A DNA stretch of 63,209 nt, counting the filler, from Licmophora abbreviata (Eukaryota): NCBI GenBank assembly GCA_900291995.1. It is 9 parts of 9 records of this genome, joined end to end, with 100 filler letters (N's around TTAATTAATTAA, not from the genome) between each part and the next. Parts side by side here need not be neighbours in the genome. Positions count along the whole stretch, not along the records: positions 1 to 10,856 come from OLMU01000160.1; 8 more parts are not named here. One strand, given 5' to 3'. Positions 8,483 through 61,997 of the stretch are shown in pieces (the first letter of the stretch is position 1; every line of letters begins with the position of its first letter). The translations under genes and the position numbers were made by a program. A model generated the notes under the pieces. The model did not search any database, was not told the origin of the DNA, and worked only from the letters and a program-made list of their open reading frames with translations.

Positions 8483-9324
8483 TTAGCTTTCCCCGTGCCG
8501 ATCACGAAAGGTTGAAATGCTGTCTCCTGTCTTGCCCGCGGCCGCACAGACCCCCGACTTCCAGTTGGTATCGTGCTTTCGAACATGCTTGTCCTGCTGG
8601 ATGAGCTTGCTGACCCTCGCTCGCTGCTTGCGGGCTTCCTCCTTTTCATGCTGCGCCTTTTGTTCCATCAAGAGACGAGCCTTTTGTTTTTCCGACAACT
8701 TTTCAGTAGACGTCGACTTGACTAGGGGTCTCGCGCTTACTTTCTTTTCTTCAGTGTCGACACGTGGTTTCGTGTTGGTGGCTGCGACTCTGTCAGTGGT
8801 AATAGTAGTCGACTGATGCCGAGGCATGACAACAGCCAAGGCATTCGACACCTCCGTGAGAGAGGCATTCATGGACACAATGTTTACACTGTCCACTAAC
8901 AAAACTCGCCCTCCTTCCTCATCAGTCATTTCAACAAAACCGATTCTCTTGAGGTATTCCAGTGCCGACGGGAAGGGAAGAATCTTAGCAGCCACTTTTG
9001 CGTTTTCGAGCTTTAGCTGTCGGTACTTTGGCTGTTTTGACTTGACTGGGTCTGCCAGATTATTGATGACTACCTTGAGTAGCTTCAGCTGTGCGTTTGA
9101 GAAGGAGAGAGGAAGAAATCTGAGCAAAGGTGCTCAGAATGACGTGAAACCAGTCGAGATTGTCGCCGCTGCAGCATCGGCACACGGAATGTTGTCGTTA
9201 GTCGGAAGTAATTAATTTGCAATGCACTCACGCAGTCGATTTTTTGTTCCGCTGAAGTCGCGCTGTCCAACACAAGCGACTGAAGATGAATCCCAGCGCC
9301 CCCAGTGTAAGCAGACGATGCCAT
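8483..9324 (-). CDS. PUB-domain protein (p97/Cdc48 adaptor-like); exons 9324-9232 and 9088-8483
   Basis: Intron 9231-9089 gives KIDC|LKLLKVVINNL...PKYRQLKLEN...ALEYLKRIGF, a typical PUB signature, followed by a coiled-coil C-terminus. Confidence 0.8.
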
Positions 9325-9572
9325 GGTGGTCTCTAACGTCTCTTCTCGATGCCTTTGTCCTTTCCTCTCCCATCCATGTTCGGCAGCCTTCGTCATTTTG
9401 TGGTCGCGTGATTGCACCGCGTGTGACGTGGCTGTGCGAAATAAGTTTCGCGAACGCTGTGACGTCATATGTATGCGGAACTTCAATTTTCAAAGTGTCT
9501 CTCGCGAACAAAAGGTTACGAAGCAACGAGACGATTGTATTTCATACTCGACAGATGTAACCATCCTGAGGC

Positions 9573-10856
9573 TTACTCGGACGACGTTGCTGTTTTCTTC
9601 TTGCGTTGTCTCGCTCGACTTCGCGCCTTTGCTTTTTGTTTCTTCTGAACAGCTTTCTTCGTTTTCTGACTAGCTTTGCTGTCGGCACCATTCAAGTATT
9701 CGTCTACTTTCATCCGCAGTCGTTTCCTGGCAATCTTTCTATTCTGCTGTAAGGAACGAGTTTCCTGACATTCCACCTTCAGCTGCGTAGGTTCATGAAC
9801 CAGCACCACGCGATTCGATGTTTTGTTGATCTTTTGACCTCCAGCCCCGGATCCTCTGACAAAGGTTTCAGTCAAATCACTCTCGTCGACATTGGGCAGC
9901 TGATACTTGTCCAGCGAGGGACCTTTCGTGCCCTCCAATCGACGTGATACTTCGGTGAGGATGGGTTTCCGCAGATCCGCGTTCGGTAGCAATGCGGCAA
10001 GTTCCGAGAATATGTAGAGTGCATCAATGTCCGTCGTGGGAATCAGAGACGGCTCCAAGCTGGTACTGGGATCCCGTCGTGCATCTTGAAACAGACGCAG
10101 TGCGGCCTGCACATAGGCCTCAATATCCTTCTTTTGCAGCTCCCTTCAGCATGTACGAACGTCTCTTGCAAAATAGAAGATTGCTCCTTAAGCTCCGCGA
10201 ATCGTTGAAGGCCCAGTATTTGTCGGATGCGGTTGCTCACCATTGCTTGCTTCTCGCGGTTCCATCGCTCGAAGCATCCTCATTTCGTTTCCACTCTTCG
10301 TATGTTGTGATAACGCCATCAATCGTCTCGCCATAACTTCCCACGGACCCAAAGACACGGTCAATTCTCTGTTCACGATCCCAGACTATCCGTTCCTTGT
10401 ACTTGATCGCAACGACACGATGCTCCGGCAGTGCCAAGACCAGCTGTTTCTCCGGTCCGGCAATCGATTCGTTCGGCGCATCCATCGGCGACTCGACGAC
10501 TTGGTCCTCCACGCGGTCGTAATGTAGCACTGTAAAGTCACTCATGGACAAGGACATATCGTACTGTATTCGCCTCAGGACTTCTCGACAAGGCACCAGC
10601 TTACTAGTAGCTTTTCCTGTGTCGTCGGATTTGGTTCTGTCCGCAAAGAGTCGCTCGTAAGCAGGACTATTAACGTCGCTTAGCTTTGCCAGCCTGGATT
10701 CGACTCCCTTCAATCCTCTCCCCAGAAGGGATGCTAGCGTTGGCAGTGATTCCTGACGATGCTCGTGCAGGAGTCGATCTTGGTCGATCGACCATTCGTG
10801 GTAGAGGCTGCTCATGGGTTCCGGAAAAGGAGCTGATGATGATGAGTCGTTCGCTG
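9573..10856 (-). CDS. Myb/HTH-like + MJ1316 (DUF504) + class-I release-factor-like GGQ domain (C12orf65/ArfB type) fusion; two 1-nt frameshifts; 5' end runs into a gap
   Basis: ORF 10237..10815 has MJ1316-like 'EVLRRIQYD...LHYDRV...LPEHRVVAIKYKERIVWDREQRIDRVF'. ORF 9573..10112 has 'ETFVRGSGAGGQKINKTSNRV...CQETRSLQQNRKIAR' and a basic tail. A bridging frame (10043..10243) is joined by single missing bases near 10273 and 10143. Confidence 0.75.
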
Positions 10857-10956
10857 NNNNNNNNNNNNNNNNNNNNNNNNNNNNNNNNNNNNNNNNNNNN
10901 TTAATTAATTAANNNNNNNNNNNNNNNNNNNNNNNNNNNNNNNNNNNNNNNNNNNN
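10857..10956. other. Assembly gap with artificial linker (N44-TTAATTAATTAA-N44)
   Basis: Seen directly; an identical structure occurs at eight sites. Confidence 0.98.
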
Positions 10957-10986
10957 CAATGGGAGAAACAGCTACACTACCATGCA

Positions 10987-11688
10987 ATGTATCTGCAGGA
11001 CGGAGCTTTTGAGTTCATGACGCCTATTCACTTTGAAGATGGAATGGACTTCGATGAATGCGACTGTTACTACGCCTCTATCAACGATGGTCCAAGTCGA
11101 TCTGCCACTGCGAAAAAGCCGAAGCGCCGAAAGTCGAAAGAACAGATCAGAGACGAGGTCAGGGGCATGCTTCCATCCTGCCTGCGCGAAAGTGGACGCA
11201 AGAATCCAGACCTGGCTGTAAATGGGCGGCCTCCTCTTCGTCGTACAGTCTCCTTCTCGTCAATGCCGAGCGACAACAGTCTTTACACCGAGGCGATCTA
11301 CGAATGTACGAAAGAATCGGCGCCGGGTCCCAACGTCACATTCGAAGAGTACGCCACAGTTGCAACCATCTACGCTATCGACGACTACCCAGAAGATGTT
11401 CGAGCTTCCGTCTGGATGTCACGGGAGGACCTGTCGCGGTGCATGAGAAGAGCCATGGTGGAGGAGATGAAAGAACGCCGAGCAAGAGAGACAGAGACTT
11501 CAATCGTCGAGAGGCCTGTTGTGGAAAATACATCTCAAAAAACAAAAGAAGTTCATATGCTAGACGACGGGAGCGACGACTCATTCGATGCTCTGGACCT
11601 CGTTAAATGCAAGAATGGGTATACAGAATACACTGAAGACGTTGAAACTATGCCCATGACCATGTGCGAGGTTGTTCTTTCGCAATAG
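10987..11688 (+). CDS. Hypothetical protein (diatom-type low-complexity family)
   Basis: 233-aa ORF with 'RRTVSF' and 'VTFEEYATVATIYAIDDYPEDVRASVWMSREDL' motifs; no recognisable domain. Confidence 0.7.
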   Translation: MYLQDGAFEFMTPIHFEDGMDFDECDCYYASINDGPSRSATAKKPKRRKSKEQIRDEVRGMLPSCLRESGRKNPDLAVNGRPPLRRTVSFSSMPSDNSLYTEAIYECTKESAPGPNVTFEEYATVATIYAIDDYPEDVRASVWMSREDLSRCMRRAMVEEMKERRARETETSIVERPVVENTSQKTKEVHMLDDGSDDSFDALDLVKCKNGYTEYTEDVETMPMTMCEVVLSQ

Positions 11689-13650: not shown

Positions 13651-15369
13651 TCAATAGCGCTTTGCCCTCTTCCTCGAAGCGACTGCTTGAATTCCACCCT
13701 CCAACATACCAACAACACTAAATGTTCCTCCAATGATGGCAAGAATAGAAGTAACGTAGTCATACCAATGTCGTGATGTGTTCTCGAGGGAAACTTTGAT
13801 GGGGGACAAGTCAAGAATGAATTTCGCCTCTGTCAAGTGAAACACCCGTGGTGAGCACAAAAAGACGAACAATCGATAAAAGGAATGAACTCATCAGACG
13901 TACCTGGAGCAATATCGTTCTCGTAAAACGTAAGCTGGCTACTCTGCAGAATTTGATAAGCCATCTTCGACCCACGACGTCCCGAGTTACCGTTCATTCC
14001 TGGGACCTGGGTCGTGACGACTTTCAAGTAGTGGTGAAAACTTTGGTGCATGTCACGAGTCACGTAAGCATTGCCGTTCATGGGAGTCATCTTCTCCCTA
14101 ATTTCGTCGGGGGTGAATATGTTACGGTCTGTCACCATTCGAGTCGACATAGGGTCGCCAATTGACAAATGATGCACGATGTGGGATGTGTTCGTTCGAT
14201 ATGCGAGAAGAGAGTGTTGCGGCGATCGGGCCAGGATTGCAAAGTTTCCGGGCACACGTTCCACCATCAAATGCCCCGCAATTTGGCATCCTGGATGTTC
14301 GACGTCCAACCAGTTGTCATTTGCTTTGTGTTTCTGCTTGCGAGCGATGCGCTCCTTCCATTCGAGTTCTTCTTCGCCCATGTGATCCTGGGCCGCTTCA
14401 AAGGCAACGTGTAGCCTTCGTTCAGCATCAGTTCCTTTCTTGTGCTCCTCTTCCACGCTGTGCAACCAGTCTGTCATCGCCATTACCGTCCTGTCTGCAC
14501 GGTAGTCGCCCTTGGCGACTCCATCCACAAAGAGACGAAGCGTTGGGTAGGCACGGATATCGTGTTCGATGCAAAATTTGTGGTGGTCGACACAGTCAAT
14601 CTTGGCAATGAAAACAGGTTTCTCGAGGCTGGCGGCATGTTCGAATTCATCTTCCGAGTAGTCGTGTTCCAGCTTGTCCTCGGCGATTTGTTCCGCTGCA
14701 TCAGCCATTACCTCCGCCAATGTTTCCCATGTAGGAGCAAGATCACGACAATGACTACACCACGAGGCGTACTGCATGTATGCAAAGGGAGACTATTGGT
14801 TGAGAATGTCGTGATGTACGGTGTAGGTATTCCTCATAAGAGCAAGCAGAAAGACTTACGAAATCGAGAAAGAGGTACTCGTGTTGCTTGAGAGCGTACT
14901 CAAAAGTCTGTTCGTCCAAGGACACAGCGTCCTCTCCGTCTTCATGCAGTTCCTCCAAGGTGTATGTAACTTTGTCATCTTTGAGATGAATTTCGTTCTT
15001 GGCTTTTCGGTTGCGTCCCGAGAATTGCTGGCGCACTCCCTCGGCGTCGACGTCCCATTTGGTGACGGCAGCGGCGACAAACTGGTCCTTTCCGAGCACA
15101 GACACAACGTCGACGACAGCAAAGTCGCACTTCATGTCCATCATGGTAATGTTGAAATTAACACGGATGCGCCTTTCCACATTGTCGTCGAGCGTGAGGG
15201 ACGTAGTCCAATGGGACTGTAGGTAGGCCTTAGTCTCAAGCAAAAACAAAACAGCAATGGTGAAGAGTGCCACCAAAGACAGAGCAGACCCCCTCTTCGT
15301 TCCCTCCATCAGGTCCACAGGGACCTTTCGGTACATATCCAGGCTCGCAGCCCATCGTCGAGGCGCCAT
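13651..15369 (-). CDS. ERV/ERGIC-domain protein with internal thioredoxin domain (PDI-C type); 3 exons
   Basis: ERGIC_N 'LDMYRKVPVDLMEGT', Trx 'YASWCSHC', COPII-coated ERV domain 'GCQIAGHLMVERVPGNF', and C-terminal 'LSPIKV...ILAIIGGTFSV'. Confidence 0.9.
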
Positions 15370-18512: not shown

Positions 18513-18612
18513 NNNNNNNNNNNNNNNNNNNNNNNNNNNNNNNNNNNNNNNNNNNNTTAATTAATTAANNNNNNNNNNNNNNNNNNNNNNNNNNNNNNNN
18601 NNNNNNNNNNNN
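18513..18612. other. Assembly gap with linker
   Basis: Ns flanking TTAATTAATTAA. Confidence 0.98.
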
Positions 18613-20757: not shown

Positions 20758-20857
20758 NNNNNNNNNNNNNNNNNNNNNNNNNNNNNNNNNNNNNNNNNNN
20801 NTTAATTAATTAANNNNNNNNNNNNNNNNNNNNNNNNNNNNNNNNNNNNNNNNNNNN
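20758..20857. other. Assembly gap; flanks overlap (20712-20757 = 20858-20903)
   Basis: 46-nt exact duplication on both sides of the linker. Confidence 0.97.
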
Positions 20858-24990: not shown

Positions 24991-27900
24991 TTAATTGAAT
25001 GCGGAAATGAACAGAAGTCGATCTTCAAAGTGTATGTTTCCGTCGTCGTCCACTCGATGCTTTTCGTCTACCTTGATACGATTGCACGCTTTCTCCAGTT
25101 CATCGTCTGAAAAGTTTGAAAACGTGCTCCAGAATCGCGACTTGACCATACCCAGCCAACAATTTAGTGGGGTCGAACATGGGTAGGCTTCGAGAGAATG
25201 AGATACACGCTTGAAGNNNNNNNNNNNNNNNNNNNNNNNNNNNNNNNNNNNNNNNNNNNNTTAATTAATTAANNNNNNNNNNNNNNNNNNNNNNNNNNNN
25301 NNNNNNNNNNNNNNNNAATGAGATACACGCTTGAAGCCAGCCGCGAGCAAATCGGACTCTATTTCATCAAGCGAAGGTTGATTGTTTGCCCACACCTGAT
25401 TTGCTTCCTTCCATAAGGGATAATCATGCTCGAGTTGTGGCCTTGTGACGATGAGAACGGCTGGACTGTGATGCGTACTATCGTCCATTGGACAAACCTC
25501 CCTTTGCATTCTTTGAAAGATTCGCTGTCGATTGCTAGCATCCAAGTGATGGACGACTTCTTTCATCAAGACTTGATGGTATCCTTGTCTCCACAAGGCA
25601 TCGCTCGGAGAAGAAAAACTCTCAGCTCCAGCCTTGACGAATCTCACTTGCTCATCGTCAACATTCCAATCGGACGAAGACTCCAAGAAAGGGTCGACCA
25701 CGACAGCCTTCACAGATGCTCGCCCTTGGACAATAAGTCGAGTAAAGTTCCCAGTTCCTCCACCAACGTCTAGTAGAGTGCGAACCTCGCGAGGGCCCGA
25801 AGACCAGCCAAGTCGTGAAACAACTAAATCAACGAGATAGGTCATGTACTTTCCTGGTGAATAGAAGAATGCCGACTCGTACGATGACGCCGAGTGCCCT
25901 TCGTAGTGAGCCTGGGTCTTTGTGTTGGAAACAGAGTCACCACTTTTCTCCAAAGTGCGGGGCTTGTGCTGTAACCAGGCTACCTTGATATCTCGATAAG
26001 GCTTCGCCCATTCGGGCATGTCGACCTCCAGTAGAAGCGCAGCCAATCTCTCGTCGATCGATCTGCCTTGCTGTCCTTTCTTGTTCATAGTTATCTCGTA
26101 GCGCAAGGCGTGTAAGCAAATGATATGTCCCGTTTCGAGCAGTTGAGCCGCCGTAAACGAAGATTCGATACCCTGTTTGCCTCCCTGACAGCATTTGCAG
26201 TTACGAATCGCACCTTGAGCGTCCGCGTCAGGCGTCTTCGATAACTGCCGGCTTGTGTCTGCTTCGAAGCAGCTTTTCGAAATAAGTCTCACCGCATCGT
26301 CCTTTCGGTTCAGCGTCAAAGGCTCTCCACCGTACTGGACGTCGCCTACGATAGGGAAGCCTAGCCATTGTAAGTGGAGACGAAGCTGGTGTCCCCGACC
26401 CGTAAGTGGACAACACGAAATTATAGAGCAGTCGGCCTCCGGATCATAAGACTGGTACTGGAAGCGACTCTTGGCTGCCTTGCCCTCTTGTGCAATAGCG
26501 CGAATTCCAATCATGGGGTCAATGGTATGTATGGGGGCATCAATCTGAAAGCATTGCATCTCATCGGCCCAGGTCCAGGCAGCGCAGTCGGATGGCGAGA
26601 AGGATGGGAAAAGATCTCTGGCAGAGTCCATTGCCTGAGGAAATCGACCCTGGGCGCAAGACACCACATAAACCATCGGTTAGAATTGAACGGCCCAAGT
26701 GAAGTGAAGAACAAAACAGCAGTAGCACTCACCTTCACAAGAGCGAGGTAAAGTTTGCGGACCATCCCCTCGTTCATTTTGCTTTGCACCAAACGAGCGG
26801 TGGCTGTGTCAGTACTGCAAATCGTGAGTCCGCTGGTGACTCGATCAATCCTGTGACAAGTGTGCAGCGAGCGAGTCCTGAAATGCTCCTGTGCTTCCAC
26901 CAGAAGGGAGAGTGCATTCGATAAATAGGGTCCCGTAGGGTACACGGGCACTGAAGCGGGTTTGTTGCAAACTACGATCCAGCTGTTGTCAGAACTAAGC
27001 CCATACTCCTCGATGACTGGTGTGGCAAGTGAATGCTTTGCACTTGAATTACAGCAGGAGTAATGACTGGTGGCTCGTGCCAATGCGTCACTCGCGAAAT
27101 AACATCCATGTTCCGAAGCTTCGTCGACATAGTTTGTTTGGTCACTTTCAGATCGTTGAGACAAAGAAGTCCTGCGCTTATAGTAGCACCAAGTGAATCA
27201 TCATCGCTGAGGCCCCAAAACTCTTGTTGAAGAACAGATACCAACGACCTTCCGTTCCATTTTCCTTTCACAGACGTTCTCAGGACTCGGACGCAAGGTG
27301 GTGGGATACGAATTCCGGTTTCTTCATCTCTGTGCTTGCTAGGACCAAGGGAAAGCTGAAGTTGCTGAATCTCGTCGATTGATTCCTCCCGCCGTCTAAT
27401 CTTTGACACTCGCTGGTTGGCGGTTCGGCGCGTTGAGCGAGATGGCGGCGCTATTGGCTCTTTACATGTTGCACTAGCAGCTGGAGCTGATGCGATTGGC
27501 AACGCTGTCGGTCGAGGTTCAAGTCGATCTTTTCGATGTAGACCATGGAATCCCCAGCAGCTGCCGGAGCAATCGACGTCGCCACAGTTTCGACAAACGA
27601 AAGCGCCGCTGCTTGACACGCTTCCACCGCTAATCGCACTAAGTCTTGCGGTGAGTCTGTCACATTGCTTTTGCAAAGTTTTCCGCTTCTGTTTGTAGCG
27701 TCGACCAACCGAGATCTTTGCAAGCTGCTGCCTCAGTTCGTCAAGCTGACGCGACAGCTCGTCTTTTCCATATTCCTCGAGATTTGTGAAATAACATGTC
27801 CGCAAGTGAAAATGATTTACACAGTGGTACTCTTGATTCTTCGGTCTACACGGGTCGCAAACAAGGGTGGGCTCTCGACAAACGGTGCATACGCAACTGG

Positions 27901-42958: not shown

Positions 42959-43058
42959 NNNNNNNNNNNNNNNNNNNNNNNNNNNNNNNNNNNNNNNNNN
43001 NNTTAATTAATTAANNNNNNNNNNNNNNNNNNNNNNNNNNNNNNNNNNNNNNNNNNNN
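42959..43058. other. Assembly gap with linker
   Basis: Ns flanking TTAATTAATTAA. Confidence 0.98.
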
Positions 43059-43986: not shown

Positions 43987-46900
43987 TTATACCGGGACGC
44001 AACGAGTGGTCCAGATTCTGTTGCTGACATGCTGGCAACGTTGCGTCAAGTATCGAATGACAATTAAATCAAGCAGTCGAGCGACTCTGGGGTGTTTTTC
44101 AACCAGCCACTCCCAATCATGTCGCTCCAAAGCAAAAACAACCGACTTTTGGGACATGCATTCGACACTGGTCATTCGTTTCAATCCGTAGACAAGACCT
44201 AGCTCGCCGATGAAGTGTCCCTTTCGCGCAATCTCCGCCGTATCTGTTCCCTCCAATCGGGAGATCAAGGTGCCTTGACAAATAAGTTTGGCGCAATGAG
44301 ACTCGTCGCCTTGACACCAAAGAATGTCGTTTTTATTGTACTCTTTCCTGTGAAACTTGCTAAAGAGGAGATCGACTGCAAGTGCATAGCACCATATTCA
44401 ACGATGAGATCATGCCTTCGCTCAAGAAAAGAGTCGCACTTCGTTTCGTAGAACGTACCGTCCTTTTGTTCTGCCCCTGGACAAAGCTCGAGCAAGGTCG
44501 TCTTGGCGATTGCCCGCTCAGCTTCAGCCGATAGGTGTAAGCCCGCTATCGCAGTGTCGGAATCGAGGTTTCGTAAATCATCAATTCCTTCCGAGAAGGC
44601 TACTTCTTCGGTGCGCAAATACTCCTGATCGGCTCTCGCAATAAGTACATCCTCACCAAACTTCAACGCCTCGTCCATGTCAAGACAGACTCGATTCCTC
44701 GGAAAACCTCGTCGAAGCAAACCATTTCTCATGGCGTTAGGATCACGAGCAAAGGGAATCGAGCCTCGTCTCGGGGCCATACTACCATGGGTACCACCCG
44801 GGCTTTTATCCTCGCTTCTGTAAAACACTGGAAGATCATCTTCCGCCGAAAGCTCTTTCGTTAGGTTGTATTCACAAGGAAAGCCTAGTGGGTCTCCCGC
44901 AACAAACAGAGTGACTGGTACATCAAAAGCTCTATTCAAGACCGCTTTCAGCTTCCCGACGGCGTGCGCTGCCGAAGAGTCCATACCGGCGACAAGAGTG
45001 AAATCAAGAATCAGCTAAACCAAAGCAAGAATGTTAGTGACTGTGAGATAGGTCGACGGTAATAGTCAACAATGGAAAATGGAGAATTATGGAGACCACT
45101 CACTATCCAAGGCTCGTTGTCCGTATCTCTACGCTCGCCCAATGTCTCCTTGATGTCGTCCGTCAACTGCGCAATATTACCGAAGAAAATCTATCTCGCA
45201 CGTACAGTAAGAGTGTGGAAACTATGGTAAGAATACTGCCAAGACACGACACGCAACCCTAAACGCATATGGTCCACTTACATGTCCCCTGCAGCTGAAA
45301 GATTAAGATTCGATGTCTGCCTGTCATTTTGTCCTCCAAAATAGCTAGAGCTTTCGGGGACCTGTTCCATTTGCTGCTTCGCAAGGTTGTAGCAGTCATC
45401 GTCTTTCGAATCGGGTCATGATGGGCAACCGACTGCATCGCATAGGTAAGCAGAGCAGAGATAACGCCTGCAATGAGCGCCGCGCTCATGCCCTTCCATG
45501 TCATGACAGCCGTGATTACCCAGATTCCGGCGTACTCCAACATGTCGAATTTTCCTATTGCTGTGTTGGCGTAAAGACAAGTGAGCAACTGAGAGAATGG
45601 GAGACGTTGTCCTTTACAGACTCAACATAAGCCTCTTACAATCATAGATACCCTCCAGGAATAGATCAACACCAAGATGGAGCAGTAACGTTCCAGCCAT
45701 GCACCGAGGAATATAGGTTGCCAAAAAGGGACCGACCACAAAGAGTACACTCGTTATGCTGGCTATGGCAAGAGAAGAAGCTTTCCCTTCGCCGCCTGAT
45801 TTTGCGTACAAGACTGAGTTGGAGTAACACAAGTAGTTTTGCAATCCTAGAAGTTCCGATACATTCGTCCGACAGAGGCCGCTTCACCATTAGGGGGCGT
45901 CCAACGATACAACTGACACTCAAAGGGAAATGAGCTTACCTCCAAAAATTCCCGAGAAGAAATTCGAATATCCGTGCGCAATCAACTCGGCATTCATGTC
46001 CGTATCTATCGGCGGACCGTGCACCCGCAGAGTGGCAGAGGCAAGGGGATAAGTCCAACCCTCACTCTATGCCAAAATAGCGTACACGGAGTACCTACCT
46101 GCATTGGTTGAGATGGCGAAGCTTGGAATATTGATGGGCACATGGATGAGAGAAAATGCCGCAAGCGCAACCATTGTTGGGATAGCATTGGCCACTGCCT
46201 TCCATGAAATGCTCCGAATATCAATCACATGCCAAATGTCAAAGAGGTGCTCGTCAAATATAATCGCCTGTAGCGATAGTTGACCGCAAGACTCCTCAGA
46301 ACTGGCGTTGCACTCTGTTACTGATGGAAAAAAGTAACCAGCTTCTTGAGCGGCTGACTGATCAATATCAAATAGCCACAAACCTAAGTAAAACATGGGC
46401 GTAATCAGGCAAAAGAAAACAGGAGACAAGAGTACGAAGAAGGGTCGCCCCGATTTGTCTGTGTTGAGATATGAAAATACACGTAGAATAGCTTCCCAAA
46501 ACACAACGATACCAAGCAGATTGAGTTTTCCTACAAGAATTTGGAGACTCTCTGTACTGAGACGGAAAGGAGAATCGATTGTGACCTCGATCGATGTGAA
46601 GATGATGAATACACCTGTCATTCGGCCGGTAGTGAGGAGTGAGATTAGGCCATCCGACCGGCCGCCGTCGGACAGAGCTTGAAGCACTTACCGATACCAC
46701 CAATGCAACCGATCAGCACGTGAGCAGGAAAGTAGTAGACGACACGCCCCAACTTCAATTTTCCGAGTGCATAGAATGTAGCTCCAACAACGACCGACGA
46801 CATGCCAAACAGAAAGAAGAGCGTAGACAGCGCGTCGACACCACACCCTTGCTCTGAAATCACTGTGAAAGCCAGAGCATGACAAAAAGGGACGTTTTCA

Positions 46901-47659
46901 ACCATCTGCAAGGCGACTGGATTCTTAAACTTTGACGCAAAGGTATATGCAACCTGACCGACAATCGTGGCGAAGAGGAACATTCGGATACCTAGAGCTT
47001 CCTTGCCCGGCAACGGGAAAACTACCACAAGGCACCCAACGAGAAGAGATAAGCAAAGCTCACGGTAAGATGACGATGAACAAAGATATGAACAGCACTC
47101 TTCGCTTTGGCTATGACCTACCTCCACTGACACCATCCACAGACTCGTCGGATGCATCAGACGCGCTCTCAGCACCATTGCTAGACCAACCGACCGGAAA
47201 ATAAGAAACTCCAAACGGTATCCCCATCATTAGCGATATGAGACATACAATAAGAACAGCGGGGACCTGCATGGCAAGTTGATACAGATTCTTCTGGAAG
47301 CCTGTAGCCCATTCTTCCTCCCTTCCCCTTTCGTCTTCTTCCGCCAGCGCCTCCAGCTCTGCAGTGGCATCTTCGAGAAGAGGGTGCAGCTCCAGATGCC
47401 GACGAACGTCGACAATAGAATTTCTCGCACGCAGATCGCCGACTTGTAGCAAGGCAGCAGAAGCTCGACGCATCGAGTCAGACTGGACACCACTTTGAGG
47501 AGTCATAACCGAGAAGCGGCGATATGCCGTTGGAGCAACATCTTCACCAGTCGACGGCATTAGCGGCTCTTGTTCGCTTGCTCGAATTCGAAACGACGCC
47601 GACGAATGTCTCCGGCGCGCTCCACCCGGCGAATCAGGTATTGAAGGGAATTGTTCCAT
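43987..47659 (-). CDS. SLC26/SulP anion transporter with STAS and cyclic-nucleotide-binding domain (Vsb1/YGR125W-like); many introns
   Basis: Exon fragments: PFGVSYFP, LQMVENVPF, YYFPAHVLIGCIGGIG, LIHVPINIP, ELIAHGYSN, QNYLCYSNS, STAS 'QLQG...DFTLVAGMDSSAA', and cNMP 'GHFIGELG'. Confidence 0.88.
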
Positions 47660-48148
47660 ATTGGCTTATAAGGTGCAGCTCAAACATTGAAGAACCATCT
47701 TCACCAGATGGATCGGTCTGTCATGAGCTTTCGGATCGCTGATCCGGCGTCATCAGTTGGAGATCCGAAGTTTCAAGTTAGTTCAATAAAATGTCTCAAT
47801 GTATGAATATTACAATTTTATTTTCGAAATGAGCATCTTTAGCACTGAAGAAACTGGGTCGTAGCAAAAGCCCGGCGAACTTCATACAACTCAAAACATA
47901 CATGCCGGTACAGAACGAATAAAAGACGCGCAGAACAACAAACCGAAAGATGAAGTGCCGCCGCGATCACAATAAGTTTCACGCCGTTCACGAAAGTGAC
48001 TCCGTTCAGTGCCAATTTCGGTGCTGCATGGAGGGTGCAGAGAACTCAGACACACGAGGGGGAGAAGCATCCTTGTCGAAAAGAAGCAAGACAAATTGAT
48101 CTGACACCATTCTGTCAAAATTCGTCACTTTATTGAAATGCGAATGAA

Positions 48149-54635: not shown

Positions 54636-57600
54636 TTAGGCCTGTGCTGTTAAATGCCATCGTCCATTCTGTACTGATGCAATCGAGTTCAATAGACGAC
54701 GAAAGATGGCAGCGTCACAATTGGGGACAGATTCGAATTCTCTCAATATTTCGTCAGTCGTTGGACCTTTTCCGGAGCGCAGGCCGCCGCGCTGCTTCAC
54801 AAAGTTTTGGAGGCGACGCAAGATCTCCGAGTACTGACTCAGATCGGCGTCGGCGACTCCCGTACTCTGTTTTGGCTCGCTTCGCCTTTTCAGTCCTGCA
54901 AGGAGACCTTTCGAGGACATGCTTCGACTGCCGTTGCCTAGTCCGACGCCAGCTGTTCCACCTCCCCCAAAACCAGGGTCGGCGCCACCGGCGACATCTA
55001 GTCTCACAGCACCAACGCTACCGAAACGGCTTGCGCGAGTCTCTTTGGATCCTGTCCAAGTTGGTTGAAAAGCATCAGTACCTGTCGTGCTTCGACGAAG
55101 CGCTTTCGTCGCTTGCGTCGCGATTGACTTGGCCTTCTCCTCCATTTCACGGACCCGAGCATCTTTTGTGGGACCAGAACCCTCAACGACGTCGTGATCG
55201 AAAACACCGGCTAGTCCTTTACTTTTCATCACATTCTGTAAAATATCCACATTCTCCCGGTGATTGGTGTCGCGTTTAGACGGTTCTAGAGCTGTCGCTT
55301 CATCGGGATCCACAACGCCGCTCCCCTTTGTGATTTCCCCCGTCTCGGTCAGGCCGTCTCCACCACTCGCGACGCTTCCTGTGTCAGCCTTCAACGTGAA
55401 GAAGTCTCGAAGGTCACGCTGCGAGAAAAGACGACGCTGCCTTGGATCCTGCAAAACTTTGTTAGTTAAAGCCGTCTTGAAAATTTGGCGTTGGTAGATC
55501 TTCTCTTCGATCGTTCCGCTAGTGATCAAACGATAAACAGTGACAGGTTTCTTCTGGCCAAAGCGCCATGATCTTTCGCGTGCCTGAGCATCGATCTGTG
55601 GGTTCCAGTCTGTGCAAGAAGAGTTGAAGAAACTTGCTTATTAGTTCCCAACTGAGGTGGGTCGCGAAATGGCGCTCCATGCCGCTGACCTACCTGGATC
55701 GTATAATATCACGCGGCTGGCCCCTTTGTCGAGACGAGGAAACGGCAACAATCGTCAGCATGAACAATAGAACATTGCTCCGAGGTCCGTTTGTTTGTAT
55801 GCTACCGTACACGTACCGGTGAGATTAAGACCAATTCCACCCGTCCTCGTCGTCATGAGCATGCCAAAGTACGACTCATCTGAGTTGAAAGTGTCAACTA
55901 GACGCTGGCGAGCAGCCACATTCGTGTTACCATCAAGGCGACCAAACTTCCAGCCCTGCACTTGCGTGAACCTCTGTATGATGTTTAACATTTTTCTCCA
56001 TTGACAGAAAATGAGAACGCGATGACCCTGCTTTTGCCAAAGCGGGAGAATCTTTGCTAGCACCTCGAGCTTTCCTGCTCTTTCAACAAGCGACGATCCG
56101 TACTCCATATCCTCGTCATCCGTATCGGATACGTCGGTGTCCTCTAGAGCTAAGCCTCCGCTTTGTATGAACGACTGGAACGAAGACTCCTTAGGATCGC
56201 AAACCAAGTCTGGATGGTTGCATATTTTTCGTAGCACAGTGATCGCGCTTAGAAGTTGAGTTGAGCCTCGACGCAAGCTTCTGACGGTATCAGACTGAAT
56301 GTATGCCTCGTACAATGAGCGTTGCCGGGAGCTCAGTCTACAGAATAGTACGTGCTCTGTCTTTCCAGGCATTCTAGTTTTATAAGGAGCAACACCTGGG
56401 TTAGTACCCGTAACGGGGATACCAAGAAACCTCAAGCATGGCGGGGACAACTTACCGACTGACNNNNNNNNNNNNNNNNNNNNNNNNNNNNNNNNNNNNN
56501 NNNNNNNTTAATTAATTAANNNNNNNNNNNNNNNNNNNNNNNNNNNNNNNNNNNNNNNNNNNNTTCTTCTGGCGTCGCAGCGAGTAAGGGTTGATGAGAT
56601 CACGAAGCGCGAGAGCACATCTATAAGCGAGCTGCACCTGCATTGGCGATGCATTTGAGTAGCCACCTCGACGAATCGGGTCAGCAAATTCGGCTTCAAA
56701 CGCGGGAAGTGTCCCGAGCCTCCCCGGAAACACAAAATCGAATAGAGACCAAAGCTCGCGAAGGTCGTTTTTGAATGGGTGTTCCAGAAAGGAGAAGTCG
56801 ATGCGGGGTCCGTATCCGCTGATCGAATGAGAGGACGCAAACATAGGAAGCATCGTGAGCTACCGGCCACACTAGATGTTGTTAGGCGTTGCGTACGAAC
56901 CTTGCATGCAAGAGTTACATCGGCGTCTGGATTTCGGATCTTTTGGCCTTCATCCAGAACGCAGTAGCTCCAGTTGTGATTTGTCCAAACATCGGGTGAT
57001 CTTCGCACATTCTCAAACGTTGTAATAACGACATAACCCGTCCCACAAAAGCTATCCTCGTCCATAGTTTCAAGATCCTGCGAGTCTATTGGTTCGTTGA
57101 CGCGGTCCGCTCGGGCCCGCAGGAGCCACTTGTCCAGCGTGCGAAGGAGTTTCGGTGCTACACTTCTCGACAATCCATCGACCTCCCCAGATTGATGGAT
57201 CAGCACACGTCGCAGACCTGGAGCCCATGTGGACATTTCAGACAGCCAGTGCTGTAGCATCGTTGCGGGGCAGACTACGAGAACAGAATTGAGCTTTCGT
57301 CCCAATGACATGGCACCAAGGAACGCACAGACCTGAACAGTTTTTCCGAGACCCTGTTGAGCACGTCCTCACGATAACAAGAACGTCAGAAGGAGACTAT
57401 TTAAAGACATAAGGGTCGGAAAAAAGAACGCACCATCTCGTCGCCAACAATGCCGCCAGCTTCTTGAGAGTGCAGTTCCCACATCCAACGAATGCCTTGC
57501 CGTTGGTACGGAAAGAGACGATTGTTCAACCAAGCTGGAATAAATAGGCCACCGTCATAAATTGTGGCACCCGGCGGGGTTTCATGCTGATCACGCTCGC

Positions 57601-59014
57601 TCATTTCTCTCATGTTTTTCACTCCCGATGCAATCCACTCATCGACTCGGTCTTCATAGTCACACTCCTGCAAGTCGTCGAGAGACTGCCTCGATGACAC
57701 GTAGGAAACCCGTCGTCGCGATTTAGGCTTGGACCGACCAATCATCTCCTTCATGTGAGTNNNNNNNNNNNNNNNNNNNNNNNNNNNNNNNNNNNNNNNN
57801 NNNNTTAATTAATTAANNNNNNNNNNNNNNNNNNNNNNNNNNNNNNNNNNNNNNNNNNNNCGACCAATCATCTCCTTCATGTGAGTCTGTCGAGGCGTAT
57901 TTGTACTGTCTTCGCGTGGAAGCTCGCTGGATCGACCGGATTGTCGTCGTGCGCGTCGCCCTTCTCGCTGGCATTGATCAATGTGCCTGGACAGTATAGC
58001 GTCGCCATCTGCACTCGTCTCCACCGGAATTCTCGCATTGCATAACGGGCACTCCAAGGTCTCTTCGACTACCGCCGATGCCGCTAGAGATTGCTCCTCC
58101 AGCTGAGTAGGAATAAGTTGTTGGTCCACACCCCCCTCGTCGTCGAACGTCAATTCATGTTCATCATCGTCATCGGAGGATTCAACCCACTGTTCCCTTC
58201 GTTTTCGTTGCAACGCTTGCCGTTCCTTTCGTTTTCGTCGCAGGAGATCCTTTCGTTCTGTCTGGTCCTCATCCAGTTTGTCACTAGCTGCCAACCTCTT
58301 TTGCTGCATCATGGTGCCTCTCGCCCGTGCGGACCTTGTTTGCTTTTGCTCGGAAAGAGCCTGCTTTCCAAAGGAGGACGTGGACGAAGCGGAAACGACA
58401 GAGCGAGCTAAAGTGCCGTCTTGTTTGATGGCTTCGAGACGCTCGGAAGCTGATTGAGGTATCAACCTCGCAGTCGCACGCTTCTTGTTGCTGGGGCCGT
58501 CGACAGTAGTAGAATCATAGTAGTCGGTGGCGGCATCAGTGTCGATGGAAGCCACAGTCGTGGATGTGAGCATTCGTCGCGACCGCTTTCGCTCTAATTG
58601 CTCCTCTCTAGCCTGGTCGACTGGCATATCTTCAGGAGTCAGACCAGCGACCTTCTGTAGATACACCAGAAGCATTTGTTCCTTGAGTCGAAGTAGCAAT
58701 GAGTCGTGCGTCTCCGCTGTTGAATTCCGGCCCAATTCGGAACGTAGTCGCGCCAAAACCGTCGTGACGGTAGGAACATCCACCGCACCACTGGAAAGTC
58801 CCCGTCGCATATCATAGGAAGGGCCCAGTGGTGCTAGATCAGGAAAACCTACCCCAGTCAGGAGGGGCGCCGACTGCAGCGTTGCCTCACGAATGACGGA
58901 ACTCTCGTACGAAGCCATGGGCGTGATTCTGGACCCCATGGACTTCAGAATCTCCTCTGTCTCGTCCACGTTCGTCATGACCTTTGGCATCGGAGGCTTT
59001 CTAGAGGACTCCAT
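54636..59014 (-). CDS. ERCC6: ERCC6/CSB (Rad26) SNF2 helicase with UBZ-type zinc finger; several introns, two gaps and a homopolymer frameshift
   Basis: [79 protein letters not shown]...HIDQC and a winged-helix-like end. Confidence 0.93.
56464..56563. other. Assembly gap inside ERCC6
   Basis: Ns with linker; the flanking protein sequence suggests only a few codons are missing. Confidence 0.95.
57761..57860. other. Assembly gap; flanks overlap (57735-57760 = 57861-57886)
   Basis: 26-nt exact duplication; the ERCC6 frame is continuous after merging. Confidence 0.97.
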
Positions 59015-61897: not shown

Positions 61898-61997
61898 NNN
61901 NNNNNNNNNNNNNNNNNNNNNNNNNNNNNNNNNNNNNNNNNTTAATTAATTAANNNNNNNNNNNNNNNNNNNNNNNNNNNNNNNNNNNNNNNNNNNN
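61898..61997. other. Assembly gap hiding the 5' parts of two divergent genes
   Basis: Both flanking ORFs are open into the gap, so the true gap is probably much longer than 100 nt. Confidence 0.9.

Follow-up and report, generated by a model that had tools for sequence, protein, structure and literature searches.

The stretch of DNA analysed here (63,209 nucleotides of the diatom Licmophora abbreviata, assembly GCA_900291995.1; hereafter the window) carries, on the minus strand of 9573-10856, a gene that joins an MJ1316 domain to a peptidyl-tRNA hydrolase domain of the RF-1 family and that is spread over three open frames, referred to as A, B and C. The fusion of MJ1316 to RF-1 is real, and it has been conserved in Triparma as well as in many diatom lineages. 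It is likely, in our assessment, that the window holds the diatom nuclear ortholog of a conserved single-chain protein, built of an organellar presequence, a helix-turn-helix (HTH)-like module, MJ1316, a five-helix domain and a GGQ hydrolase domain of the mtRF-R type, that two bases are missing from this copy, and that the protein may serve in ribosome rescue. The parts that can be recognised in the window copy are, in the order of the protein chain:

10645 to 10794, minus strand: N-terminal three/four-helix Myb/HTH-like module, frame A residues 21-70, without a Pfam family
10375 to 10593, minus strand: MJ1316 domain PF04457, above the curated Pfam cut-off
9930 to 10325 (approximate limits), minus strand: middle five-helix domain, spanning both frame breaks, without a Pfam family
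9597 to 9893, minus strand: RF-1 peptidyl-tRNA hydrolase domain of the C12orf65/mtRF-R type (Pfam PF00472; 7a5h_C at an E-value of 5.6e-25)
9576 to 9695, minus strand: basic C-terminal helix or tail, 15 lysines or arginines in 39 residues, followed by TAA at 9575-9573

A preliminary description of this DNA had proposed the same order, from a Myb/HTH-like part through MJ1316, a helical linker and a GGQ domain to a basic tail, and that order holds. The Pfam scan that it suggested for MJ1316 and RF-1 returned both families well above their cut-offs. MJ1316 was matched in frame A over residues 88-160 and profile positions 3-75 of 75 (E-value 3.3e-14; 53.8 bits against a cut-off of 26.3), and RF-1 in frame C over residues 85-183 (E-value 9.2e-22; 77.6 bits against 35). 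The catalytic GGQ lies at 9842-9834 in frame C and is invariant in 108 orthologs, while the basic tail aligns to mtRF-R residues up to 154. No frame gave a Pfam match to the codon-recognition (PCRF) domain.

Evidence that these domains belong to one chain comes from the relatives. Searches with frame A yielded 256 longer proteins at an E-value of at most 1e-3, and the best 120 of the 256 were examined. Within this set, PF04457 and PF00472 occur together in 109 proteins and PF04457 alone in 11, lengths range from 364 to 570 residues, and identity to the window copy is at most 65%. The named relatives in this set are diatoms of Nitzschia, Skeletonema, Thalassiosira, Cyclotella, Mediolabrus, Odontella, Attheya and Bacillariaceae, and the same fusion occurs in the more distant bolidophytes Triparma laevis and T. 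retinervis. Further, at all eight metagenome loci with 41-58% identity, an uninterrupted open reading frame (ORF) runs from the MJ1316 region through the linker and GGQ to the tail. The earlier proposal that the separate frames encode a single chain is therefore upheld by orthologs that are single uninterrupted ORFs, these eight loci included, and the architecture, for which a search in other diatoms and ochrophytes had been advised, is present in diatoms and Triparma. A further, sizeable group of proteins, 300-480 residues long (P0161, P0166, P0168, P0169, P0188, P0189 and others), shares the HTH-like module and MJ1316 and is devoid of RF-1; the C-terminal 150-250 residues of these proteins gave no Pfam match.

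The GGQ domain is of the C12orf65/mtRF-R type and not of the ArfB/ICT1 type. For the frame-C piece, the best match is human C12orf65/mtRF-R (7a5h chain C), with an E-value of 5.6e-25 and about 50% identity over 104 residues that include the basic helix; 2rsm_A, also a C12orf65 protein, follows at 4.7e-19, and the next best structure stands at 9e-12. A profile built from 91 family members gives the same ranking, from 7a5h_C (7.4e-36) through mitochondrial RF1 (1.4e-15) and PrfH (1.4e-11) to ArfB (1.4e-4) and ICT1 (0.013). The AlphaFold2 model of an ortholog, P0003, which was computed from a 108-sequence alignment and has a predicted local distance difference test score (pLDDT) of 88.7, superposes on 7a5h_C with Z 10.6 and a root mean square deviation of 2.3 Å for 108 of 114 residues, including the C-terminal helix, and with a Foldseek TM score of 0.74. 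An alpha-i helix between the last two beta-strands is described as the mark of the ICT1/ArfB class 1 and as absent in the C12orf65 type (PMC6514570); in the P0003 model, strands 334-340 and 345-349 have no helix between them. The domain has relatives that occur on their own, namely fungal Pth3 and an insect 'mitochondrial translation release factor in rescue'. Of the preliminary label 'C12orf65/ArfB-type', the C12orf65 half is thus retained (7a5h_C, 7.4e-36) and the ArfB half is dropped (ArfB, 1.4e-4; ICT1, 0.013).

The subtype matters for the mechanism, since human mtRF-R and its partner MTRES1 are reported to act after splitting, on large subunits with peptidyl-tRNA still bound, and ICT1 to resemble ArfB in acting on non-stop complexes (PMC8786322). 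Given the similarity to mtRF-R, this mode of action is the better model for the diatom protein. A rival mechanism with the same anatomy would follow ArfB and ICT1: the protein would engage intact ribosomes on truncated messenger RNA (mRNA), the tail probing the empty channel and MJ1316 reading the cut 3' end. The basic C-terminal tail and the absence of a codon-recognition domain are as in ArfB, and an mRNA cut by an endonuclease would end in a cyclic phosphate, the predicted ligand of MJ1316; against this, sequence and fold are far nearer to mtRF-R than to ArfB or ICT1, and the particles on which human mtRF-R was captured were split large subunits and no 55S non-stop complexes (PMC8786322). 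On balance, we consider an ArfB-like mechanism unlikely.

Upstream of the GGQ domain, the mtRF-R-type protein of diatoms carries two modules without a Pfam family; PF00472 and PF04457 were the only Pfam matches on the orthologs. The AlphaFold2 model of window frame A (pLDDT 86.7 overall, 93-96 in the N-terminal module) has the alpha/beta MJ1316 domain preceded by a three/four-helix module at residues 23-70. The similarity of the N-terminal module to the HTH domains of Myb, Reb1, Tc3 and GcrA is weak and generic, with Z of 5.0-5.7 in VIA-align, rising to at most 6.4 in the ortholog model; on 1h89_C it superposes with a deviation of 1.5 Å over 44 residues. Foldseek returned nothing for this module at an E-value of at most 1e-3, and Pfam gave no Myb/SANT match at an E-value of at most 1, HVO_A0114 alone appearing at 0.052, below the cut-off. 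'Myb/HTH-like' appears to be a fair description of the predicted fold; it assigns the module to no family.

The region between MJ1316 and the GGQ domain had been described as a helical linker. In the P0003 model, residues 164-290 are confidently predicted to form a folded domain of five helices (171-200, 202-219, 227-246, 261-273 and 278-290), mostly with pLDDT above 90. Its best structural neighbours in VIA-align are harmonin-homology five-helix bundles at Z 6.5-8.2, values that could arise by chance among helical folds; CCM2, RTEL1 HHD2, harmonin and whirlin lead the list (Z 7.1-8.2). The modelled likeness to harmonin-homology domains is at most suggestive.

For the MJ1316 domain, the binding of RNA ends bearing a 2',3'-cyclic phosphate is a computational prediction, expressed in the Pfam name and in a published analysis (PMC6514570). 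Sequence searches for a solved structure of MJ1316 gave chance matches only (E-value 0.5) and the family profile gave none, and fold searches, in which the domain was searched within the larger model and not separately, gave no clear match. The company that the domain keeps elsewhere offers some orientation. Among 53 MJ1316 relatives that were scanned, eight carry a 2H phosphoesterase domain of the AKAP7 type, and two (P0200 and P0225) carry a fused CIA30, a complex I assembly factor. Such co-occurrence is consistent with MJ1316 acting at RNA ends and with a link to mitochondria, and proves neither.

The orthologs extend 35-140 residues upstream of the conserved methionine, and their presequences resemble the plastid signal of diatoms, which serves here as a lead only. 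A hydrophobic core followed by [ASGC]-F was found in 38 of 89 distinct ortholog N-termini, at positions 17-49 and mostly at 17-28, as against a mean of 6.2 and a maximum of 13 in composition-preserving shuffles and none of 89 internal windows of the same proteins. RASAF, AGAF and VKAF are examples of the motif at the N-termini of these orthologs (P0001-P0120; loci L001, L004 and L005). The ASAFAP motif is described as part of the bipartite plastid signal of diatoms (PMC4329603), and translation proteins are reported to be dual-targeted to plastid and mitochondrion in diatoms (PMC5462543); the main text of the latter study (Dorrell et al., 2017) contains no mention of a release factor, a peptidyl-tRNA hydrolase or ribosome rescue. 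As far as the presequences can tell, the organelle served is probably the plastid, or the plastid together with the mitochondrion.

How the gene is laid out in the window requires closer attention, as the copy is not one ORF: it has two one-base breaks, and its 5' end is lost in a gap. The open stretches, the segments of frames A and B that are used, and the breaks are as follows:

10854 to 10240, minus strand: open stretch of frame A, 205 residues, stop TGA at 10239-10237
10279 to 10046, minus strand: open stretch of frame B, 78 residues
10145 to 9576, minus strand: open stretch of frame C, 190 residues, stop TAA at 9575-9573
10276 to 10854, minus strand: frame A segment used, with the tail of the presequence, the conserved methionine at 10815, the HTH-like module, MJ1316 and the start of the helical domain
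10142 to 10273, minus strand: frame B segment used, 44 codons with the conserved first helices of the middle domain
10264 to 10278, minus strand: first frame break, A to B, where orthologs have one base more, in a GCTTC context at about 10273
10139 to 10148, minus strand: second frame break, B to C, one base missing in a GAAGGGA context at about 10143

The three overlapping frames are present as the preliminary description gave them, and so are the two shifts that it had placed in GCTTC near 10273 and in GAAGGGA near 10143, each of which amounts to one missing base. When eight full-length orthologs were compared by tblastn with window positions 9001-11000, the matches ran colinearly over frames A, B and C. 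In P0003, residues 1-183 match 10815..10264 in frame A, 184-215 match 10264..10169 in frame B and 225-406 match 10139..9579 in frame C. The frame-B match of P0003 has an E-value of 1.2e-7 and 62.5% identity; over the eight orthologs, the E-value of this match is below 1e-4 in six, 0.010 in one and 0.42 in one, the lowest being about 1e-8. Frame B is therefore coding, and the segment used aligns with the ortholog consensus EWNRQRQxEVSxRIQxILGxxRxxxLKELSSxL. At the first break, residues 183 and 184 of P0003 both map to 10264, which leaves no room for an intron, and with one base added the window and P0003 alike have seven residues between WKR and WNR. The second break lies immediately after a frame-C stop at 10148-10146, and here nine P0003 residues (216-224) between the frame-B and frame-C matches correspond to about 30 nucleotides of DNA (10169 to 10139), so that an intron finds no room there either.

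Splicing was the alternative that had been raised for the second shift, in the form of a 134-nucleotide intron at 10240-10107 connecting frame B to frame C. A scan for GT/GC-AG pairs joining frame A directly to frame C gave several dozen open combinations, the best being a 97-nucleotide GT-AG intron at 10240-10144. In favour of splicing, GTGAGC at 10240 is a good donor, introns of 67-100 nucleotides with GTRAGT donors occur elsewhere in the window, and the 97-nucleotide version opens a reading from A to C without any frameshift. Both candidates were nevertheless rejected, as either intron would delete 10240-10166, the stretch that matches the conserved linker of the orthologs in frame B (E-values down to 1e-8), and none of the eight related loci has an intron there. 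Moreover, the 134-nucleotide version still requires the first frameshift, the 97-nucleotide version has AAG as its acceptor, unlike the best-supported candidates in other genes of the window, which have CAG or TAG, and the product of splicing would hold 12 out-of-frame residues and lose about 32 residues of a folded domain. Splicing as the cause of the frame changes is very improbable.

Even less credence can be given to a pair of genes, one for an MJ1316 protein that ends at the stop of frame A (10237) and the other for an RF-1 protein translated independently from frame C. It is true that frame A is terminated by a stop, that frame C is open for 190 residues, and that MJ1316 proteins in which a local profile detects no RF-1 make up 111 of the best 150 representatives, many of them fragments. 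The first methionine of frame C, however, lies downstream of the GGQ domain, the intervening frame-B stretch is homologous to the linker of the orthologs, and the orthologs are single ORFs. For annotation, the single-chain gene in the window should accordingly be handled with caution, as one that is incomplete and frame-broken in a draft assembly, and neither as two genes nor as a gene with an intron at this place.

Position 10856 is the edge of a spacer and not the end of the gene, the 5' part of which is cut off; in this region the orthologs carry a presequence of about 50-140 residues. Eight identical spacers, each of the form N44-TTAATTAATTAA-N44 and with stops in all six frames, join the nine contigs of the 63-kb window:

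10857 to 10956, no strand: spacer N44-TTAATTAATTAA-N44, read as an assembly gap in which the 5' end of the gene is lost
18513 to 18612, no strand: spacer
20758 to 20857, no strand: spacer
25217 to 25316, no strand: spacer
42959 to 43058, no strand: spacer
56464 to 56563, no strand: spacer
57761 to 57860, no strand: spacer
61898 to 61997, no strand: spacer

A gene for an SNF2-family helicase (minus strand, 55758-57760) runs colinearly over two of these spacers; the order and orientation of the contigs should therefore follow a scaffold, with the spacers as gaps in a scaffolded draft. On the far side of the gap that truncates the fusion gene, a plus-strand ORF at 10957-11685 (243 residues, without a Pfam match) is likewise cut, and the missing stretch should thus hold the 5' ends of two divergently transcribed genes.

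Whether the two breaks are errors or mutations is less clear-cut, and our judgement leans towards local errors of sequence or assembly for both. The copy bears no sign of decay. Of the 118 columns on which at least 85% of 108 orthologs agree, it departs at four, against an ortholog median of 3.5, and each departure is a conservative change (W/Y, I/V, R/K and R/K). All 24 columns that are invariant in a 91-sequence alignment (A2) are kept, no stop interrupts any of the frames used, and the GGQ is intact. The breaks lie 583 and 713 nucleotides from the gap edge, in a window with eight gaps in 63 kb. The absence of decay together with the adjoining gap makes an artefact likelier than a young pseudogene. 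No relative in the collections searched exceeds 65% identity (at most 65% and 64% in the protein searches; 58% for the best metagenome locus).

The alternative is that both missing bases are real, in a recent pseudogene or in a frameshifted allele of a diploid diatom, so that no full-length protein is made from this copy. This is less probable, and several of the observations in its favour also weigh against the overall reading proposed above. The sequence shows both breaks without ambiguity. Spurious insertions and deletions are not a general feature of the assembly: ORFs of 1713, 863 and 707 residues are unbroken, and the 580 nucleotides nearest the gap are free of frame errors. When all 195 stop-to-stop ORFs of at least 90 residues were compared with Pfam as a gauge of assembly quality, no confirmed frameshift was found outside this gene among the Pfam-matched ORFs. 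Four split genes (pseudouridine synthase, SNF2 at its first junction, ERGIC/thioredoxin and UPF0029) have plausible GT-AG introns of 67-100 nucleotides, and a convincing intron candidate was not found at the MFS, Kelch and second SNF2 junctions. With the assembly apparently clean elsewhere, two errors 130 nucleotides apart would be unusual, and a pseudogene of very recent origin would hardly be revealed by the conservation test. To these points must be added that the targeting argument is a crude motif count over related, non-independent sequences with the N-terminus of the window copy itself missing, and that full-text searches for MJ1316 and for PF04457/UPF0248/DUF504 retrieved no experiments on MJ1316 function, only the 2019 analysis and unrelated papers. 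Against real mutations stand the intact single ORF kept in all eight related loci and in many diatom lineages, the open frames, the 24 retained invariant columns and the retained GGQ, and a divergence at conserved columns no greater than that of the orthologs; two indels without any other damage would also be an odd pattern of decay.

With the missing bases restored, a working model of the single-chain protein can be outlined by analogy with human mtRF-R. After a stalled ribosome has been split, the GGQ domain would enter the peptidyl-transferase centre of the organellar large subunit that holds peptidyl-tRNA, and would then free the nascent chain, while the basic helix would anchor the protein to ribosomal or transfer RNA. 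The module formed by the HTH-like, MJ1316 and helical domains would recognise an RNA feature of the stalled particle. That feature could possibly be a 2',3'-cyclic-phosphate end left by a nuclease on transfer or ribosomal RNA, in which case release would be directed to damaged complexes.

A bolder extension of this model, to which we would assign a low probability, is that diatoms and bolidophytes have sent an mtRF-R-type hydrolase to the secondary plastid, or to plastid and mitochondrion, where its own upstream module takes over in cis the job of MTRES1. The module would dock on split large subunits, either at the anticodon loop of a P-site tRNA cut by a nuclease and ending in a 2',3'-cyclic phosphate or at a cut loop of ribosomal RNA, and release would be gated by RNA damage. 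Should this be true, such damage-gated release would constitute a eukaryotic single-chain counterpart of the bacterial RtcB-PrfH logic.

A few other observations in the window deserve mention. Its introns appear to be short (about 67-100 nucleotides), with GTGAGT, GTAAGT or GTGCGT donors and CAG or TAG acceptors, and breaks in Pfam profiles coincide with predicted splice sites in the pseudouridine synthase and SNF2 genes. The candidates are:

26732-26650: candidate intron in the pseudouridine synthase gene, donor GTGAGT at 26732
57433-57354: candidate intron at the first junction of the SNF2 gene
14859-14793/14772: candidate intron in the ERGIC/thioredoxin gene, donor GTAAGT at 14859
34634 onward: candidate intron in the UPF0029 (Impact-like) gene, donor GTGAGT

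At 43990-47665 on the minus strand, several short ORFs, not all in one frame, hold fragments of a sulfate-permease domain (only profile positions 34-123 of 380) together with a cyclic-nucleotide-binding domain; this could be an intron-rich or a degraded gene. AT skew is unusually high (0.16-0.20) at 46-50 kb, in the region of the sulfate-permease fragments.

The fusion has been noted before. Burroughs and Aravind (Int J Mol Sci 2019;20:1981; PMC6514570, section 2.5 and Fig. 4C) devoted one sentence and a figure to the joining of a C12orf65-like domain to MJ1316 and proposed that release is coupled to the repair or damage of organellar RNA, as for RFH/prfH (RtcB-PrfH). The central idea of the preliminary description, that one chain senses RNA damage and rescues the organellar ribosome, is thus already in print, and the function, argued by analogy, is hypothetical. 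The domains and the hypothesis are the same in both cases; the paper is silent on the HTH-like module and the folded middle domain, on plastid-type presequences and on the spread over diatoms and Triparma, and it predates the structure of mtRF-R with MTRES1. Full-text literature searches found no experimental follow-up to the C12orf65-MJ1316 fusion. What is added here is the conservation of the fusion across many diatom lineages and Triparma, the mtRF-R type of its GGQ domain, which implies a split large subunit as the substrate, two further domains without a Pfam family, and presequences that look plastid-like. If the published hypothesis is true, it would provide a direct link from RNA damage to the quality control of organellar ribosomes in major primary producers of the ocean, and it could be tested in transformable diatoms.

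Four other known systems can be compared with the protein. Human mtRF-R (C12orf65) and fungal Pth3 share with it the GGQ domain, the basic C-terminal helix and the lack of a codon-recognition domain. Unlike the diatom protein, which adds about 290 upstream residues comprising the HTH-like module, MJ1316 and the five-helix domain, the human and fungal proteins are stand-alone and only 110-190 residues long; human mtRF-R further relies on a separate RNA-binding partner, MTRES1, and the diatom presequences look plastid-type. ArfB (YaeJ) and ICT1/mL62, which rescue stalled ribosomes, are likewise GGQ hydrolases that lack codon recognition and end in a basic C-terminal extension. They are, however, distant in sequence (1.4e-4 and 0.013 against 7.4e-36 for mtRF-R), and the P0003 model is without their helix between the last strands.

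From the side of the recognition domain, the nearest comparison is with the MJ1316-2H phosphoesterase proteins (RWD/zf-CCCH-MJ1316-AKAP7_NLS), which we take to be LENG9-like. They share the MJ1316 domain with the diatom protein, but their effector is an enzyme of the cyclic-phosphodiesterase type acting on the RNA end and not a peptidyl-tRNA hydrolase. Finally, bacterial PrfH with RtcB2 (PDB 7sa4, and 9mor, 'Damaged 70S ribosome with PrfH bound') furnishes the conceptual model of a release-factor-type hydrolase tied to RNA damage. PrfH belongs to a different RF subfamily (E-value 1.4e-11) and its partner is a separate gene for an RNA ligase, whereas the diatom protein has no fused ligase or repair enzyme and carries in the same chain a domain predicted to recognise RNA ends.

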